Shown in pieces: positions 6,337 to 21,274 of a stretch of 32,000 nt of DNA (positions are counted from its first letter, which is position 1; the number at the start of each line of letters is the position of its first letter). Under the pieces are notes generated by a model. The model searched no databases, was not told the origin of the DNA, and saw nothing but the letters and a program-made list of their open reading frames with translations. The stretch covers positions 27,526-59,525 of the forward strand of contig JBATUR010000045.1 of the NCBI GenBank assembly GCA_049671305.1. Direction: 5' to 3'. Both the position numbers and the translations under genes were made by a program. This DNA comes from Coleofasciculaceae cyanobacterium. Lineage in GTDB: Bacteria > Cyanobacteriota > Cyanobacteriia > Cyanobacteriales > Coleofasciculaceae.

Positions 6337-7569
6337 TCAGCCGATACTGTCGGCAATGTGCGTGGCTTTAGTAGACAGCAGATTCTGCAAAAAACTATAA
6401 CCAGCTTGCTCTAAGTCTCCCGATAAAGAAAAAATCAGGCTGCGAATTCGGATGCTGCCAATTCTTATGTCTAAAGGCTCAGATAAAGGCGTTGGGTACA
6501 AAAGAATTGCCTCCTGACACCCTTTAGCTTCGGCATAGGCGACAACTTGAGCAAGATCACTTGATGCAGGTGTAGTTGAGGTTTTGTACTTCGTATCCAA
6601 TACATACCTCGCTGCACCTGTCGCTATATCTAATAGCACCAAGTCGATCTCAAAGTAGAGAGTTTTGCTTTGACCGATATAGATTCTTTCTTGAGACTTG
6701 AGATCTAACCCAAATGATAGTAGGATTTCGCGGTGTGCCACAAGCCATTCTGCCACAAAACGCTCGTATAGTCGCGCCATATCCACCAGGAATGGTAACA
6801 TTGTGCGATCGCCTATTTCGTGACTGGCTCCACTCTGCTCTAAAAAAAATCGACAAAGCGCGTGTAGAGGTCGATAATCTTCGTTGAGGCGGTTATATTG
6901 TCGCCCTACACAGGATTGAGGACTGTAAGGCTGTAGTGTCACTAATCCCTGTAGCAGGTGGAAAGCACGGCGTACTGTCGGCATGACTCGTTCTGTACAG
7001 CCGTTATGGGCAATGCACCAGAGAGTCCAGGCGAGGATCTGATTTTCTTCTACGTCGGCAGTATGTTCCTCATAATGACACTGGACTTTCAGATCCCAAG
7101 GTTTAGCGATCGCCTGTTCTATGTCAATCCGCCCTCGGATATATGGCAAGCGCTCAGTTTTTGGTAAGTAAGCACAATACAATCCCTGGCAACTTCGGTC
7201 GAAAATTCGGCGGGTTAAAATTTCAGCCAATCTTTCATAAAAATCCTCAAAAGTTTGGCAATCAACTAGTCCCTCCAAAAACCGAAAACTCTTAAGCTCG
7301 TATGCATACTCCAGCATCCCTAAAAGATTATCTATCTGTACTTTAGGACGTAATATAACCTGAAAATCAGCAGTTAAGGGAATCTGTCCTACCCATCCTT
7401 GTGCCGTCAGTCGCCATTGCTGATTCGTCTTGGGAGAGGGGAAATCTACAGCTACTTGAGGGCTATAACTACGCCATAAAGCCTTACCCAAAGTTTCGGG
7501 GATGACTTGCTGCGCTAATAGCACTGGACGATATTCTGTTAGCTCTATTCTCCGTGGGGAATTACTCAT
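6337..7569 (-). CDS. mcrC: McrC-like nuclease subunit of an McrBC-type restriction system
   Basis: Its size and its position immediately downstream of the McrB-like GTPase fit McrC. A C-terminal PD-(D/E)xK-like signature is present (FEIDLVLLD...YVLDTKYK). The track starts at a TTG (7575), but I prefer the ATG at 7569-7567, which forms an ATGA overlap with the mcrB stop at 7568-7566. Confidence 0.85.
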   Translation of the reverse strand: MSNSPRRIELTEYRPVLLAQQVIPETLGKALWRSYSPQVAVDFPSPKTNQQWRLTAQGWVGQIPLTADFQVILRPKVQIDNLLGMLEYAYELKSFRFLEGLVDCQTFEDFYERLAEILTRRIFDRSCQGLYCAYLPKTERLPYIRGRIDIEQAIAKPWDLKVQCHYEEHTADVEENQILAWTLWCIAHNGCTERVMPTVRRAFHLLQGLVTLQPYSPQSCVGRQYNRLNEDYRPLHALCRFFLEQSGASHEIGDRTMLPFLVDMARLYERFVAEWLVAHREILLSFGLDLKSQERIYIGQSKTLYFEIDLVLLDIATGAARYVLDTKYKTSTTPASSDLAQVVAYAEAKGCQEAILLYPTPLSEPLDIRIGSIRIRSLIFSLSGDLEQAGYSFLQNLLSTKATHIADSIG

Positions 7570-18262: not shown

Positions 18263-18290
18263 GTAGGGGCGCATGGCTGTGCGCCCCTAC
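18263..18290 (+). terminator. 11-bp GC-rich hairpin (GTAGGGGCGCA-TGGCTG-TGCGCCCCTAC) followed by GGGTTTT. It is a dispersed-repeat-type stem-loop and a possible terminator of the 60-aa gene.
   Basis: Arms read at 18263-18273 and 18280-18290. The downstream T-tract is weak. Confidence 0.4.
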
Positions 18291-18372: not shown

Positions 18373-18792
18373 ATGGAACCGATTTCTTTGACCGCAGGAG
18401 CGATCGCTACTTTAGCCTTTACAAAAGCCGTGGAAAAAGCAGGCGAAAAATTTACCGAAGCAGCACTCAAAAAGATGGATATCTTGCGTAAAAAGATTTG
18501 GGACAAATTGCGGGGCAATGTTAAAGCTGAAACTGCCCTTACTGCTGCGGAAAAAGGCTCAAAATCCGATTTAGATAAAGTTGCTGATTATTTGAAAATC
18601 GTGATGAATGAAGAACCGGAATTTGCCAAAGAGGTTCAGGCGCTTGCTCATGAAATTCGGATTGGCAAAATCCAAGATAACAGCAGCATGACTCAGAATA
18701 ACCACGATAACAGCACAGGCTACCAAACAAAGATTGAGCAAGGTAAAAACTATCTTGGCGGGACTCACAACTATTACGGTAAAGGTGACTGA
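18373..18792 (+). CDS. N-terminal helical module (139 aa from ATG 18373) with a Q/N/G-rich tail, ending at an in-frame TGA. It is probably the detached N-terminal effector/adaptor domain of the downstream NB-ARC-TPR protein.
   Basis: The track ORF starts at TTG 18313. The ATG at 18373 (MEPISLTAGAIATLAFTKAVEKAGEKF...) has AGGA upstream. The stop TGA at 18790-18792 is in the same frame as ORF 18907-20673. Confidence 0.55.
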   Translation: MEPISLTAGAIATLAFTKAVEKAGEKFTEAALKKMDILRKKIWDKLRGNVKAETALTAAEKGSKSDLDKVADYLKIVMNEEPEFAKEVQALAHEIRIGKIQDNSSMTQNNHDNSTGYQTKIEQGKNYLGGTHNYYGKGD

Positions 18793-18906
18793 CTGCCGCC
18801 GCTGGTAGCGGAACCGGTACTGTTAACTCCGCCACAAAATCTTCCCCCTAGCGGCATTTCCCAATTTGTCGGACGAGAAGACGTACTCAAAACTATACAT
18901 CAGCAA

Positions 18907-20673
18907 TTGCAGCAAACACAGACAGTTGCAATTTCTGCCATTGCTGGCATGGGTGGCGTCGGTAAAACCGAACTGGCGCTGCAATACGCCTTGCAATCAT
19001 CACGTGATAAACAATACCCAGGCGGTATTTGCTGGCTAAATGCCCGAAGTTTGAATGTGGGAATTCAAATTGTCAATTTTGCCAGAAAATATTTAAAGTT
19101 GCAGCCTCCCGAAGGTTGGGAATTACTAGATCAGGTAAAGCATTGCTGGCACAATTGGCTGCCGGGAGATGTGCTGATAGTGCTGGATGATCTGACCAAA
19201 TATGAGGATGTGAAGCCTTATTTACCACCAATAGATCTCCGTTTTAAGGTATTGATGACGACGCGGCTACAGTTGGGTGCACCAATTAAACGCTTAGATT
19301 TGGAGGTGCTGACTCCAGAAGCGGCACTGGCTATGTTGAGGTCGTATATTGGGAAAAAACGGGTAGATAGCCAGTTAGATGTTGCTAAAAAACTCTGCAA
19401 ATGGTTGGGTTATTTGCCCTTGGGTTTGGAGTTGGTGGGGCGATATTTGGCTGATGAAGAGGATTTATCCATAGTAGAAATTCAACAACTTTTGGCGCTG
19501 AAATGTGAAGCCTTGGATGAGACTCATCCTGAAATGACAGCAAAGCTAGGTGTTGTGGCTGCCTTTGAGTTGAGTTGGCAGGAATTGGACGAAAATGCCC
19601 AAGTTTTAGGTTATCTGCTTTCTTTGTTTGCCTCTGCGCCCATTCCCTGGTCGTTGGTGGAAAGTGCCACAGACTTTTGGCAAGAATACCAAACCCACCA
19701 GGGAATAAATTCCCTGGCTGATAGCGAAAGTCCGTTAAAACGGACTGAAGACACTGATGCTAGTCGGTTTAAACCGACTTCCGCTATTAGCCCGGAACTT
19801 AAGTTCCGGGCGGGGAAAGCGACTATCCCCGATTTAAAGAAAGCCCGACGCGCTTTGCTAAAGTTCAACCTAATTAAGCGCACCAAGAAAGACACCTACG
19901 AGTTACACCAACTAATTCGAGAATTCTTTTTGGATAAACGGGAAGAGTCCGCCGAGGCAGAGGAACTGAAACTGGCATTTTGTCGGGCAATGGTAGCTGA
20001 GGCAAAGACAATTCCTGCGACACCGACGCTTAAAGATATTGCAGCAGTGAGATTGGCTATTCCTCACATTGGCGAAGCTGCCACTACTCAGAAAGCTTGG
20101 TTGGATGATGAGGATTTAATCAGACCCTTTGTTGGTTTGGGGCGATTCTACGAAGGACAAGGAGACTACAAGCAAGCCGAACCCTGGCGTGAGCAATGCT
20201 TGTCATTAACTAAAGCACGCTTGGGAGAAAACCATCCTGACGTGGCAACCAGTATCAACAATTTGGCAGAACTCTACTATTATCAAGGACGCTACACAGA
20301 AGCAGAACCTTTGTATCTGCAAGCTTTGGAGTGGAGGCAACGGAATCTGGGAGAAAACCATTCTGATGTAGCAGAAAGTCTCAACAATTTGGCAGCACTC
20401 TACTATTCTCAAAGACGCTACACGGAAGCAGAACCATTGTTTCTGCAAGCATTAGAGTTGAGGCAACGTCTGCTGGGAGAAAACCATCCCGATGTAGCAC
20501 TCAGTCTCAACAATTTGGCATATCTCTACTCTTCTCAAGGACGCTACAGTGAAGCTGAACCATTGTTAGAGCAAGCTTTAGAGTTGAGTGAGCGAGTGTT
20601 GGGGCTTAATCATCCTAATACTGTTAGCTACCGTAAGAATCTGCAAAGACTGCGTGCTCAGCAGGTTGATTGA
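18907..20673 (+). CDS. NB-ARC (AP-ATPase-type) STAND NTPase with C-terminal TPR repeats. The 5' boundary is unreliable because homology-like sequence continues upstream to 18793.
   Basis: P-loop AIAGMGGVGKTELALQYA and Walker B VLIVLDDL are present. There are four or more kinesin-light-chain-type TPRs (NNLAELYYYQGRYTEAEPLYLQALE...). The track start is a TTG. The canonical pre-P-loop motif NLPPSGISQFVGREDVL is encoded upstream of it at 18838-18888 in the same frame. Confidence 0.85.
   Translation: MQQTQTVAISAIAGMGGVGKTELALQYALQSSRDKQYPGGICWLNARSLNVGIQIVNFARKYLKLQPPEGWELLDQVKHCWHNWLPGDVLIVLDDLTKYEDVKPYLPPIDLRFKVLMTTRLQLGAPIKRLDLEVLTPEAALAMLRSYIGKKRVDSQLDVAKKLCKWLGYLPLGLELVGRYLADEEDLSIVEIQQLLALKCEALDETHPEMTAKLGVVAAFELSWQELDENAQVLGYLLSLFASAPIPWSLVESATDFWQEYQTHQGINSLADSESPLKRTEDTDASRFKPTSAISPELKFRAGKATIPDLKKARRALLKFNLIKRTKKDTYELHQLIREFFLDKREESAEAEELKLAFCRAMVAEAKTIPATPTLKDIAAVRLAIPHIGEAATTQKAWLDDEDLIRPFVGLGRFYEGQGDYKQAEPWREQCLSLTKARLGENHPDVATSINNLAELYYYQGRYTEAEPLYLQALEWRQRNLGENHSDVAESLNNLAALYYSQRRYTEAEPLFLQALELRQRLLGENHPDVALSLNNLAYLYSSQGRYSEAEPLLEQALELSERVLGLNHPNTVSYRKNLQRLRAQQVD
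19698..19832. repeat. Nested-hairpin small dispersed repeat inserted in frame inside the NB-ARC-TPR coding sequence
   Basis: Five consecutive perfect hairpins were read: CCAGGGAATAAATTCCCTGG, AGTCCGTTAAAACGGACT, AGTCGGTTTAAACCGACT, CCGGAACTTAAGTTCCGG and CGGGGA..TCCCCG. The connector CCGCTATTAGC is the reverse complement of the core of the connector GTCTAATAGCTAAAG in the 17.6-kb repeat. The segment encodes the low-complexity stretch QGINSLADSESPLKRTEDTDASRFKPTSAISPELKFRAGKATIP. Confidence 0.75.
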
Positions 20674-20741
20674 TGACGAGAGAGGAAAGGCGATAATTAA
20701 AATTGAGCAATCAAAATTAAATTTTTTTGGAGACTCCAAGC

Positions 20742-20972
20742 ATGAGTGAAACTGCCCAAAAACTTAAACTCGAACTTTCTCAGCTTTCTGCAAAAGAACG
20801 TGCTGAAATTGCCTATTTTTTAATTCATTCTCTAGATGAGGGTATAGATGATAATCTAGAAGCTGCTTGGGATATGGAACTAAGCCAACGTTTGGAAGAT
20901 ATTAATTGCAAAACGGCTATTGGAGAACCAATGTCTCAAGTTTTTTCTGAGTTACGAGAAAAGTATTCGTGA
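20742..20972 (+). CDS. Type II antitoxin ('putative addiction module component' family that partners ParE/RelE toxins)
   Basis: The ATG at 20742 is preceded by GGAG. MSETAQKLKLELSQLSAKERAEIAYFLIHSLDEG...EAAWDMELSQRLEDI is the typical pattern. The stop overlaps the toxin start (GTGA). Confidence 0.75.
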   Translation: MSETAQKLKLELSQLSAKERAEIAYFLIHSLDEGIDDNLEAAWDMELSQRLEDINCKTAIGEPMSQVFSELREKYS

Positions 20973-21274
20973 AGTTTATTGTTATCCACACTGAAGCCCG
21001 AAAGGAGCTTGATGGTGCGATTTCTTATTATGAATCTCAAAAAGTAGGCTTGGGACTAGACTTATTGTCGGAAGTGGAAAAAGTTCTGCTGAAAATTCAG
21101 CAAAACCCTAATTTAGGAACCCCACACAAGATTGAAGGCATACGTCGTTATGCTATTCAACGCTTTCCCTATCTAATTTTTTATACGGAACTCGAAGAGG
21201 TGATTTGGATTATTGCGATCGCTCATAGTAAGCGTAAACCAAATTATTGGAAACAAAGAAATCTGGAAATTTAA
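20969..21274 (+). CDS. ParE/RelE-family type II toxin
   Basis: 101 aa. GTG start overlapping the antitoxin stop. Family-typical pattern: ...ARKELDGAISYYE...LGLDLLSEVEKVLLKIQQNP.LG......GIRRY.IQRFPYLIFY......IWIIAIAHSKRKPNYW. Confidence 0.8.
   Translation: MKFIVIHTEARKELDGAISYYESQKVGLGLDLLSEVEKVLLKIQQNPNLGTPHKIEGIRRYAIQRFPYLIFYTELEEVIWIIAIAHSKRKPNYWKQRNLEI

Follow-up and report, generated by a model that had tools for sequence, protein, structure and literature searches.

The subject of this study is a locus in a 32,000-nucleotide stretch of DNA from a Coleofasciculaceae cyanobacterium (assembly GCA_049671305.1, contig JBATUR010000045.1, positions 27,526 to 59,525), referred to below as the window. 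Here a composite open reading frame (ORF) of 766 codons, at 18373..20673 on the forward strand, contains a single in-frame UGA that is probably read through. ORF and Pfam analysis resolves it into a Bell-type effector module with a tail resembling a bacterial amyloid signalling sequence (BASS), the UGA at 18790..18792, a linker, an NB-ARC domain and tetratricopeptide repeats (TPR). Translation from ATG 18373 to the UGA gives a 139-aa product; beyond it the frame stays open to 20673, where the tandem stop TGA TGA (20671..20676) closes the long ORF. The ORFs 18313/18373-18792 and 18907-20673 share one frame, with only the TGA at 18790-18792 between them. The 38 codons 3′ of the TGA encode LPPLVAEPVLLTPPQNLPPSGISQFVGREDVLKTIHQQ without interruption; no ATG, GTG or TTG occurs in frame before TTG 18907, and the earliest in-frame ATG is the Met codon of the P-loop GMGGVGKT. 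A first-pass annotation had described this layout (the single TGA, the open 38 codons, the TTG start and the ATG within the P-loop), and its factual statements were all correct. No Shine-Dalgarno (SD)-like sequence was seen upstream of TTG 18907, and a promoter and terminator scan, otherwise uninformative, found no terminator between the Bell and sensor parts. A 38-codon open stretch arises by chance with a probability of order 0.1-0.2, which is only mildly unlikely. Hence, the window alone is weak evidence, and it is the comparative data that carry the argument.

Residues 1-100 (18373..18672) make up an all-helical domain of ~100 aa. Its N-terminus, MEPISLTAGAIATLAF, is a hydrophobic helix 1 in which position 2 is acidic; Bell domains carry an acidic residue at position 2-3 of such a helix, and the arrangement corresponds to the "MEPIS" motif of Bell and Hell domains (10.1101/2024.11.07.622273, 10.1101/2020.01.06.895854). 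An AlphaFold2 (AF2) model built with 48 homologs shows a helical bundle at residues 8-97, with a block-mean predicted local distance difference test (pLDDT) score of about 60-86 and an overall mean of 65. The N/Q/G-rich tail that follows (18676..18789; QNNHDNSTGYQTKIEQGKNYLGGTHNYY) is disordered in the model at residues 102-139 (pLDDT <50) apart from two short strands at 120-127, and it ends in a beta-prone C-terminal motif of ~25 aa, ...QNNHDNSTGYQTKIEQGKNYLGGTHNYYGKGD. The motif is of the type G[YWF]QT.VE.G.A.IG..H, which canonical pairs (L019, L041, P0010) have in both partners, at the tail of Bell and at the N-terminus of the partner NOD-like receptor (NLR). Such a motif, common to a Bell tail and an NLR N-terminus, is the signature of BASS (Dyrka et al., 10.1101/2020.01.06.895854). 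The N-terminal module matched nothing among the Pfam, NCBIfam and PADLOC models, and a Foldseek search of its AF2 model (mean pLDDT 65) against the PDB returned nothing at E<=0.001. Because no curated profile or solved structure matched, we assign Bell membership from motif, architecture and family context. A Bell profile search gave >1000 homologs, of which the best 120 are all 134-151 aa long; an exhaustive search of representatives gave 332 clusters at E<=1e-10, and an exact-sequence look-up of the window's own Bell protein gave no match. We conclude that the module is, by these predictive features, a Bell cell-death domain, a membrane-targeting type resembling HeLo, Hell and the MLKL four-helix bundle, with a BASS-like amyloid tail.

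Downstream of the UGA, a Pro-rich linker, LPPLVAEPVLLTPPQNLPPSGISQFVGR (18793..18876), leads into the first NB-ARC helix. The NB-ARC NTPase domain (18877..19458) is matched by PF00931 with E = 4e-15 over residues 29-222 after the TGA. Both the Walker A motif GMGGVGKT (18946-18969) and LIVLDD are present, and TPR sensor repeats follow (20128..20595; TPR_12, E = 1.7e-65; TPR_10, E = 1.2e-52), the composition of an NB-ARC/TPR member of the signal transduction ATPases with numerous domains (STAND). The first-pass annotation had seen here a STAND NTPase separated from its N-terminal module and lacking a usable NB-ARC start. That description holds: TTG 18907..18909, the earliest canonical in-frame start, lies within the NB-ARC N-terminal helix, 13 codons 5′ of the P-loop, and the NB-ARC match begins 5′ of it. 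The sensor has no BASS at its N-terminus, only the 25-aa Pro-rich linker, and is not a separate BASS-bearing NLR. The motif would reach it solely via read-through.

To gather loci for comparison, genomes were scanned with the NB-ARC part and metagenomes with the Bell part, plasmids were searched by tblastn with two Bell subfamilies, and ten Bell homologs and the closest NB-ARC relative were looked up by exact match. For the metagenome scan a four-sequence Bell alignment was too divergent, and the two-sequence version gave 5 loci only. The layout of the window, with a Bell domain and tail, a TGA, an in-frame linker and a sensor without BASS, recurs at 21 distinct junctions (the window plus 20) in at least eight named genera. 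We call this class B; its downstream ORFs are open for 300-1300 codons. Its members are the window; L027, a syntenic ortholog with the same ABC1-kinase and NTP-transferase neighbours; L005 of Potamolinea; L016 on plasmid gamma of Nostoc PCC 7120 (NC_003267.1, 65522-70384); L042 of Anabaena PCC 7108; L039 of Richelia sinica; five plasmid loci from three strains of Acaryochloris (L006, L020, L021, L023, L024); L045 of Allocoleopsis PCC 7113; L043 of Nostoc UHCC 0870; L047 of Nostoc C057; L046 of Nostocales HT-58-2; and, from metagenome genomes, L001, L029, L031, L033 and L035. The last is L048 (2936-3035) on plasmid p1 of Nostoc sphaeroides, where the frame behind Bell, TGA, CTA and the hairpin described below is open for 32 codons only and no sensor is annotated; this locus is apparently a remnant that has lost its sensor.

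The stop codon is TGA in 21/21 class-B junctions, as the ortholog alignment proposed in the first-pass annotation now shows. Could it be an error of sequencing or assembly at 18790-18792, as that annotation also allowed? Nothing beyond the single-codon nature of the interruption speaks for this, and the syntenic ortholog has the same TGA in two assemblies made independently (L027, JGI; L028, Logan). Finished genomes carry it too: PCC 7120 plasmid gamma, Anabaena PCC 7108, Richelia sinica, Acaryochloris, PCC 7113 and three Nostoc plasmids. Junctions found in at least two independent assemblies are L027/L028, L031/L032, L033/L034, L039/L040 and L001-L004. We regard the chance of an error as negligible.

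A recent nonsense mutation in an all-in-one Bell-NLR gene, the annotation's pseudogene option, would fit the existence of stop-free relatives (P0271, 957 aa; P0283, 967 aa) and of copies that are decaying: L001 with a frameshift and no start, L048 with its 32 codons, and L025 with a TAG and a change of frame. Against it stands the age of the stop. The same TGA codon is kept at 21 junctions whose Bell domains are pairwise as low as about 32-45% identical, with synonymous divergence (dS) saturated and the codon position unchanged. The downstream ORFs are intact over their 300-1300 codons, with a ratio of nonsynonymous to synonymous divergence (dN/dS) of 0.1-0.4 in the NB-ARC region across class-B relatives (window versus relatives, 0.38-0.40); the context and hairpin are conserved, and L027 is identical to the window in layout. 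A recent pseudogene is thus very improbable. Nor did we find support for the annotation's idea that one ancestral protein was recently split, since the stop is an old, selected feature.

What surrounds the stop is conserved too. The base at +4 is C in 19/21 junctions, and the next codon is CTA or CTG in 18/21, with CCG, ATA and GTG once each; in the window it is CUG (18793..18795), giving the context UGA-CUR. CTA and CTG together make up 23% of the Leu codons in the window's genes, and a conserved Leu ten codons further on is always TTA. Eight nucleotides past the stop begins a hairpin of 5 bp with an 8-nt purine-rich loop, GCUGG-uagcggaa-CCGGU in the window (18801..18818); the stem reaches 7 bp in PCC 7120. 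RNAalifold predicts the hairpin independently. In an alignment of the 21 junctions (A8), 98.1% of pair cells are paired and 14 cells are compensatory, with stems that include GCCCG/CGGGC, GCCCA/UGGGC, GUCCG/CGGAC, GCCUG/CAGGU, GUCGG/CCGAC and GCUGG/CCGGU of the window. The covariation score is 0.578 versus 0.296 in shuffles, and 0/500 shuffles reach 0.578; when the partners are slid by 1-3 columns, only 13-47% of cells pair. All six junctions retrieved after the hairpin had been proposed fit it (6/6).

Folding energies agree with the alignment. Folded in the conserved register, the window's hairpin has a free energy of -5.2 kcal/mol; other class-B junctions range from -5 to -9.5, and the minimum free energy (MFE) falls to -10.8 in PCC 7120, with its longer stem. 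The conserved hairpin, or an extension of it, is the MFE fold of the 24-nt segment in 14/15 class-B NLR and kinase junctions tested, and no such fold follows the stops of the control junctions (class A, below). A covariance model of the site, run over 265 kb of retrieved DNA, matches these junctions only, plus a TAG version in Leptolyngbya boryana; a scan of viral contigs for the junction pattern found no match. The class-B junctions combine what is expected of recoding: a conserved in-frame stop before a long, constrained ORF, a leaky context, and an RNA structure backed by covariation. The Bell and BASS-like identity of the N-terminal module and the conserved hairpin 8 nt past the stop both go beyond the first-pass annotation.

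Bacterial SECIS elements (selenocysteine insertion sequences) lie about 8-11 nt after an in-frame UGA, and the position of the hairpin would suit one, with the UGA read as selenocysteine. The junction had no match to the Rfam SECIS or any other family at the gathering score or at E<=10, so that we do not take the hairpin for a SECIS. No tRNA-Sec or suppressor tRNA was found in the window or in 19 loci, the stop lies within a disordered linker that offers selenocysteine no chemical function, and at the stop position the sense variants have W or E, not C. Cyanobacteria are not known to decode selenocysteine. We consider this alternative highly unlikely. Two further candidates were rejected outright. 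Frameshifting (+1 or -1) and bypassing are ruled out by the zero-frame downstream ORF, the conserved post-stop residues and the non-conserved pre-stop codon; genome-wide reassignment of TGA is ruled out by the other window genes that end in TGA and by the TGA TGA that ends the long ORF.

Divergence by codon position separates the signal from the coding sequence behind it. Over post-stop codons 1-13 the values at positions 1/2/3 are 0.20/0.39/0.22, and third positions there diverge by 0.15-0.22 versus 0.44-0.52 further 3′. Over codons 14-38 they are 0.30/0.15/0.44, a coding pattern. This test was used in place of dN/dS for the linker, where 38 codons gave values too noisy to use (0.12-1.1). Class-B NB-ARC matches begin at residue 29-32 past the stop, behind about 25 linker residues, and canonical starts come late: the earliest lies at codons 29-44, in the first NB-ARC helix, in the window and about nine relatives; at codon 56, the P-loop Met, in Acaryochloris, where the codon equivalent to the window's TTG is TTA; and past the P-loop in PCC 7120 (codon 83), PCC 7113 (codon 80) and HT-58-2 (codon 102). 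Purifying selection and coding-type divergence upstream of any canonical start indicate that the sensor is translated and that ribosomes enter it from 5′ of such a start. RefSeq and GenBank place the NLR starts (L006, L016, L020, L023, L024, L042, L045) at ATT, ATC or ATA codons in non-conserved positions, or at internal TTG or GTG codons that cut the NB-ARC domain. The start calls of this gene class are a systematic annotation problem.

The same Bell family provides a contrast. In class A (L018, L019, L037, L041, L026) the Bell gene stops with TAA or TAG, and the NLR has its own ATG or GTG and a ~95-aa extension bearing its own BASS. None of the Bell loci without the read-through layout ends in TGA (0/14). 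In a subset of 17 versus 6 loci, the association of TGA with layout gave p = 1e-5 by Fisher's test, the loci not being fully independent. When the class of two further proteins was called from their tail type, both predictions were correct. The first-pass annotation had also envisaged orthologs kept as two genes, the NB-ARC part with a genuine start codon and SD sequence; what we found is that orthologs keep the TGA and lack a genuine start. As a separate observation, the NLR start of the canonical pairs (GTG or ATG, 2-4 codons past TAA) falls in the Bell frame in 3/4 independent pairs (L018/L019, L041, L026), too few to set against chance.

Relatives that lack the stop, or vary it, bear on what the linker is for. 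The all-in-one proteins P0271 and P0283 show that Bell-BASS-NB-ARC-TPR is a viable protein, and neither has the post-stop hairpin linker; the linker module is therefore tied to the stop and not to protein function. Two other proteins cross the conserved linker with a sense codon at the stop position: P0368 with W (...PKD-W-LNSSERDRTKL...) and P0259 with E (...PPH-E-LKSSGG...), the latter comparable to ...TSH-TAG-LKSSGG of L. boryana. Interchange of stop and sense at one codon is typical of read-through sites.

Some loci depart from the pattern. In L025 (3933-4015), on an L. boryana plasmid, the Bell stop is TAG CTG, with the same hairpin (GUCGG/CCGAC), a G7 run in the loop, and an NLR that resumes in the -1 frame; it is either a decayed copy or one whose expression depends on slippage. 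A second L. boryana strain (hit H12) gives a match at the same offset and with the same score. In L012 (634-1392) and L030 (4412-4834) the Bell part ends TGA CTG ACT and continues in frame, for 252 and 140 codons respectively, into non-NLR sequence; these extensions have no Pfam match and no conserved hairpin, and one contains a predicted transmembrane stretch.

Taken together, these data make programmed read-through of the UGA the probable reading, with abundant Bell-BASS and a rare Bell-BASS-NB-ARC-TPR fusion as its predicted products. Of the options listed in the first-pass annotation, it is read-through that the conserved TGA context and hairpin favour, and non-canonical re-initiation survives as the main rival. 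In the latter, Bell-BASS ends at the UGA, ribosomes restart on a nearby or non-canonical codon, coupled by the SD-like hairpin loop (GGAG, AGGA or GGGA), and the two proteins act separately. Several observations weigh against read-through, and some of them speak for this rival directly. In L021 (3918-3923; Acaryochloris marina S15) TGA GTG replaces TGA CTA while hairpin and NLR (835 codons) are intact, the sole case among the 21 junctions of a canonical start directly 3′ of the stop. A TTG lies 15 codons past the stop in the L033 kinase locus, and the window and several relatives have one at about codon 34-42, within the codon 29-44 span where the window and about nine relatives have an in-frame TTG or GTG. 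The loop is purine-rich and SD-like, RefSeq annotates ATT, ATC and ATA starts, and in canonical pairs the Bell and NLR genes are as a rule tightly coupled. Other points concern the evidence itself. The case for read-through is drawn from sequence alone, and amyloid formation by the tail is a prediction. Over the linker's 38 codons, window versus L027 gives a dN/dS of about 1. With 5 bp and -5 to -10 kcal/mol the hairpin is a short one, and the literature searched holds no bacterial precedent for a read-through stimulator of this sort. The loci share ancestry, so that the counts overstate independence. The W of P0368 could be a genuine TGG or a gene-call artefact of genetic code 4 on a short ENA contig, and we do not rely on it.

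Other observations weigh against re-initiation. No start-like codon is conserved, and the post-stop codons CTA, CCG and ATA cannot initiate. No ATG, GTG or TTG occurs in any frame 5-12 nt past the loop. The conserved FVGR helix and the coding-type divergence sit 5′ of the earliest canonical start, which is at or beyond the P-loop in PCC 7120, PCC 7113, HT-58-2 and the Acaryochloris TGA-CTA loci. A stand-alone sensor would lack a BASS for signalling to Bell-BASS, and the strict TGA plus C is left unexplained. We therefore judge re-initiation unlikely, though far less so than selenocysteine decoding or a pseudogene.

If the UGA is read through, the locus would be an abortive-defence module that joins a Bell and amyloid-motif effector to an NLR-like sensor in a single recoded ORF. 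Most ribosomes starting at ATG 18373 would stop at UGA 18790 and release the 139-aa Bell-BASS, in which a latent helical domain that would attack membranes bears an amyloid-signalling tail at its C-terminus. A minority would decode the UGA, most likely as Trp through near-cognate tRNA-Trp; Trp is the residue expected from the known leakiness of UGA in bacteria. The weak UGA-C context and the hairpin 8 nt downstream would favour decoding: with the UGA in the A site, the hairpin would meet the mRNA entry channel. Its spacing is that of viral read-through and frameshift stimulators. Ribosomes that pass the stop would go on through linker, NB-ARC and TPR to give a rare full-length sensor, which would gain through read-through both its signalling motif and its only workable N-terminus; the fusion would be the only form with BASS and a complete NB-ARC N-terminus. 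By analogy with Bell-BASS/NLR pairs, ligand-driven oligomerisation of the fusion may cluster the BASS tails and nucleate an amyloid fold, which would template the abundant free Bell-BASS and so amplify membrane damage to the point of cell death. The anatomy of the locus, the conserved TGA, context and hairpin, the purifying selection downstream, the missing canonical starts and the difference from class A are what we observed; the read-through event, its efficiency and product ratio, the residue inserted and the amyloid-templating step are what we infer.

The Bell and NB-ARC modules have different histories. The window and L027 are 91% identical in Bell and 68% in NB-ARC, and the window and Potamolinea L005 are 32-45% identical in Bell and 75% in NB-ARC. 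This suggests recombination at or near the conserved junction, or fast diversification of the sensor. The Bell-TGA-hairpin cassette precedes different sensors, namely several NB-ARC clades and a Ser/Thr kinase. The latter is at L033 (650-5953; GCA_000447295.1), where the reading frame behind the cassette encodes a Ser/Thr protein kinase and not an NLR; directly 5′ of the cassette lies a diversity-generating retroelement (FGE-sulfatase-type target, bAvd, reverse transcriptase). We incline, with less assurance than for read-through as such, to the wider view that this is a dedicated, mobile cyanobacterial recoding cassette, made up of Bell, amyloid motif, UGA-CUR, 8-nt spacer and 5-bp hairpin, which is placed before diverse sensors and whose fusion product would seed amyloid activation of the free pool. 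Its sensors are several NB-ARC/TPR clades, the Ser/Thr kinase and possibly transmembrane proteins.

Other features of the window deserve mention. A perfect 11-bp inverted repeat, GTAGGGGCGCA-tggctg-TGCGCCCCTAC, at 18263-18290 is followed by GGGTTTT and lies about 80 nt 5′ of the Bell ATG. It may terminate the upstream transcript, or be a regulatory or repeat element; it was not among the calls of a simple terminator scan. A type II toxin-antitoxin pair (Unstab_antitox, then a ParE toxin, with a 4-nt overlap) separates the NLR from the NTP-transferase gene at 20727-21274. L027 has no room for this pair (its NLR ends at 6697 and the next gene starts from 6825), and the pair looks like an insertion beside a defence locus. 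In the NLR part (18793-20670) TTG and CTG account for 38% and 24% of Leu codons versus 21% and 9% in the other window genes. Its GC content, 45-48%, is only slightly above the roughly 40-44% of the rest of the window, and no obvious island stands out at the locus in the GC profile.

Confirmation of read-through would establish, for cellular bacterial genes, a phylogenetically conserved UGA read-through signal assisted by RNA structure, a kind amply documented for viruses and eukaryotes but with hardly any bacterial record. It would also account for the expression of a large class of cyanobacterial NLR-like sensors with neither amyloid motif nor start codon, and for their coupling to Bell, with a built-in stoichiometry of few sensors to many effectors, and it would amount to a new way of wiring NLR-type immunity. 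RefSeq at present gives these sensors ATT, ATC or ATA starts or truncates them at an internal TTG or GTG. The plasmid gamma locus of PCC 7120 makes the idea testable in a genetic model. The literature searched (the Bell/BASS papers, an eLife paper on conflict systems, a 2026 STAND survey and a survey of prokaryotic in-frame stops) does not mention Bell/NLR systems with an in-frame stop or with read-through. Both Bell-BASS/NLR signalling and programmed read-through are of known kinds, and it is their combination that would be new.

How does the locus compare with known systems? Bacterial SECIS elements resemble it in the hairpin that closely follows an in-frame UGA, and differ in that the class-B junctions have no SECIS match, no linked tRNA-Sec, no redox context and no Cys among their sense variants. 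The E. coli prfB site (CUU UGA CUA C) has the same poor termination context, UGA-C(UA), but there an upstream SD and a slippery CUU drive a +1 frameshift; the window class stays in the zero frame, with neither a conserved slippery codon nor an upstream SD.

Closer are the programmed read-through sites of viruses and eukaryotes, among which we compared murine leukaemia virus gag-pol (UAG with a pseudoknot after an 8-nt spacer), the alphavirus UGA-C, human UGA-CUAG genes and the UGA of phage Qbeta A1. Shared with these are a leaky UGA with C at +4 (UGA CUA G in Acaryochloris), a structure about 8 nt 3′, suppressed synonymous change after the stop, stop/sense interchange and a predicted fixed, low ratio of extended protein. 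The present sites differ in belonging to a cellular bacterial gene family and in having as putative stimulator a hairpin of only 5-7 bp; no chromosomal or plasmid read-through example of this type was found for bacteria in the literature searched.

The predicted read-through product has the architecture of all-in-one NLRs, such as Bell-NLR, fungal HeLo-NLR, plant coiled-coil NLRs (CC-NLRs) like ZAR1, and Avs2/bNACHT proteins with a MEPIS N-terminus. Those proteins have no free effector pool, and P0271 and P0283 lack the post-stop hairpin linker. The nearest likeness is to the two-gene Bell-BASS/BASS-NLR amyloid signalling pairs of filamentous bacteria (10.1101/2020.01.06.895854) and the Bab/Agp (BASS11) antiphage system (10.1101/2024.11.07.622273). 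These have the ~100-aa Bell domain with a MEPIS-type helix 1, the ~25-aa N/Q/G-rich C-terminal motif and a collinear NB-ARC/TPR gene directly 3′; they occur in cyanobacteria and are often plasmid-borne, and the same Bell family also forms canonical pairs (L019, L037, L041). Canonical Bell genes stop at TAA or TAG or run into the NLR start, and their partner NLRs have a motif copy of their own, whereas the NLR of the window class, with neither a BASS nor a canonical start of its own, sits in frame behind UGA-CUR and a hairpin.

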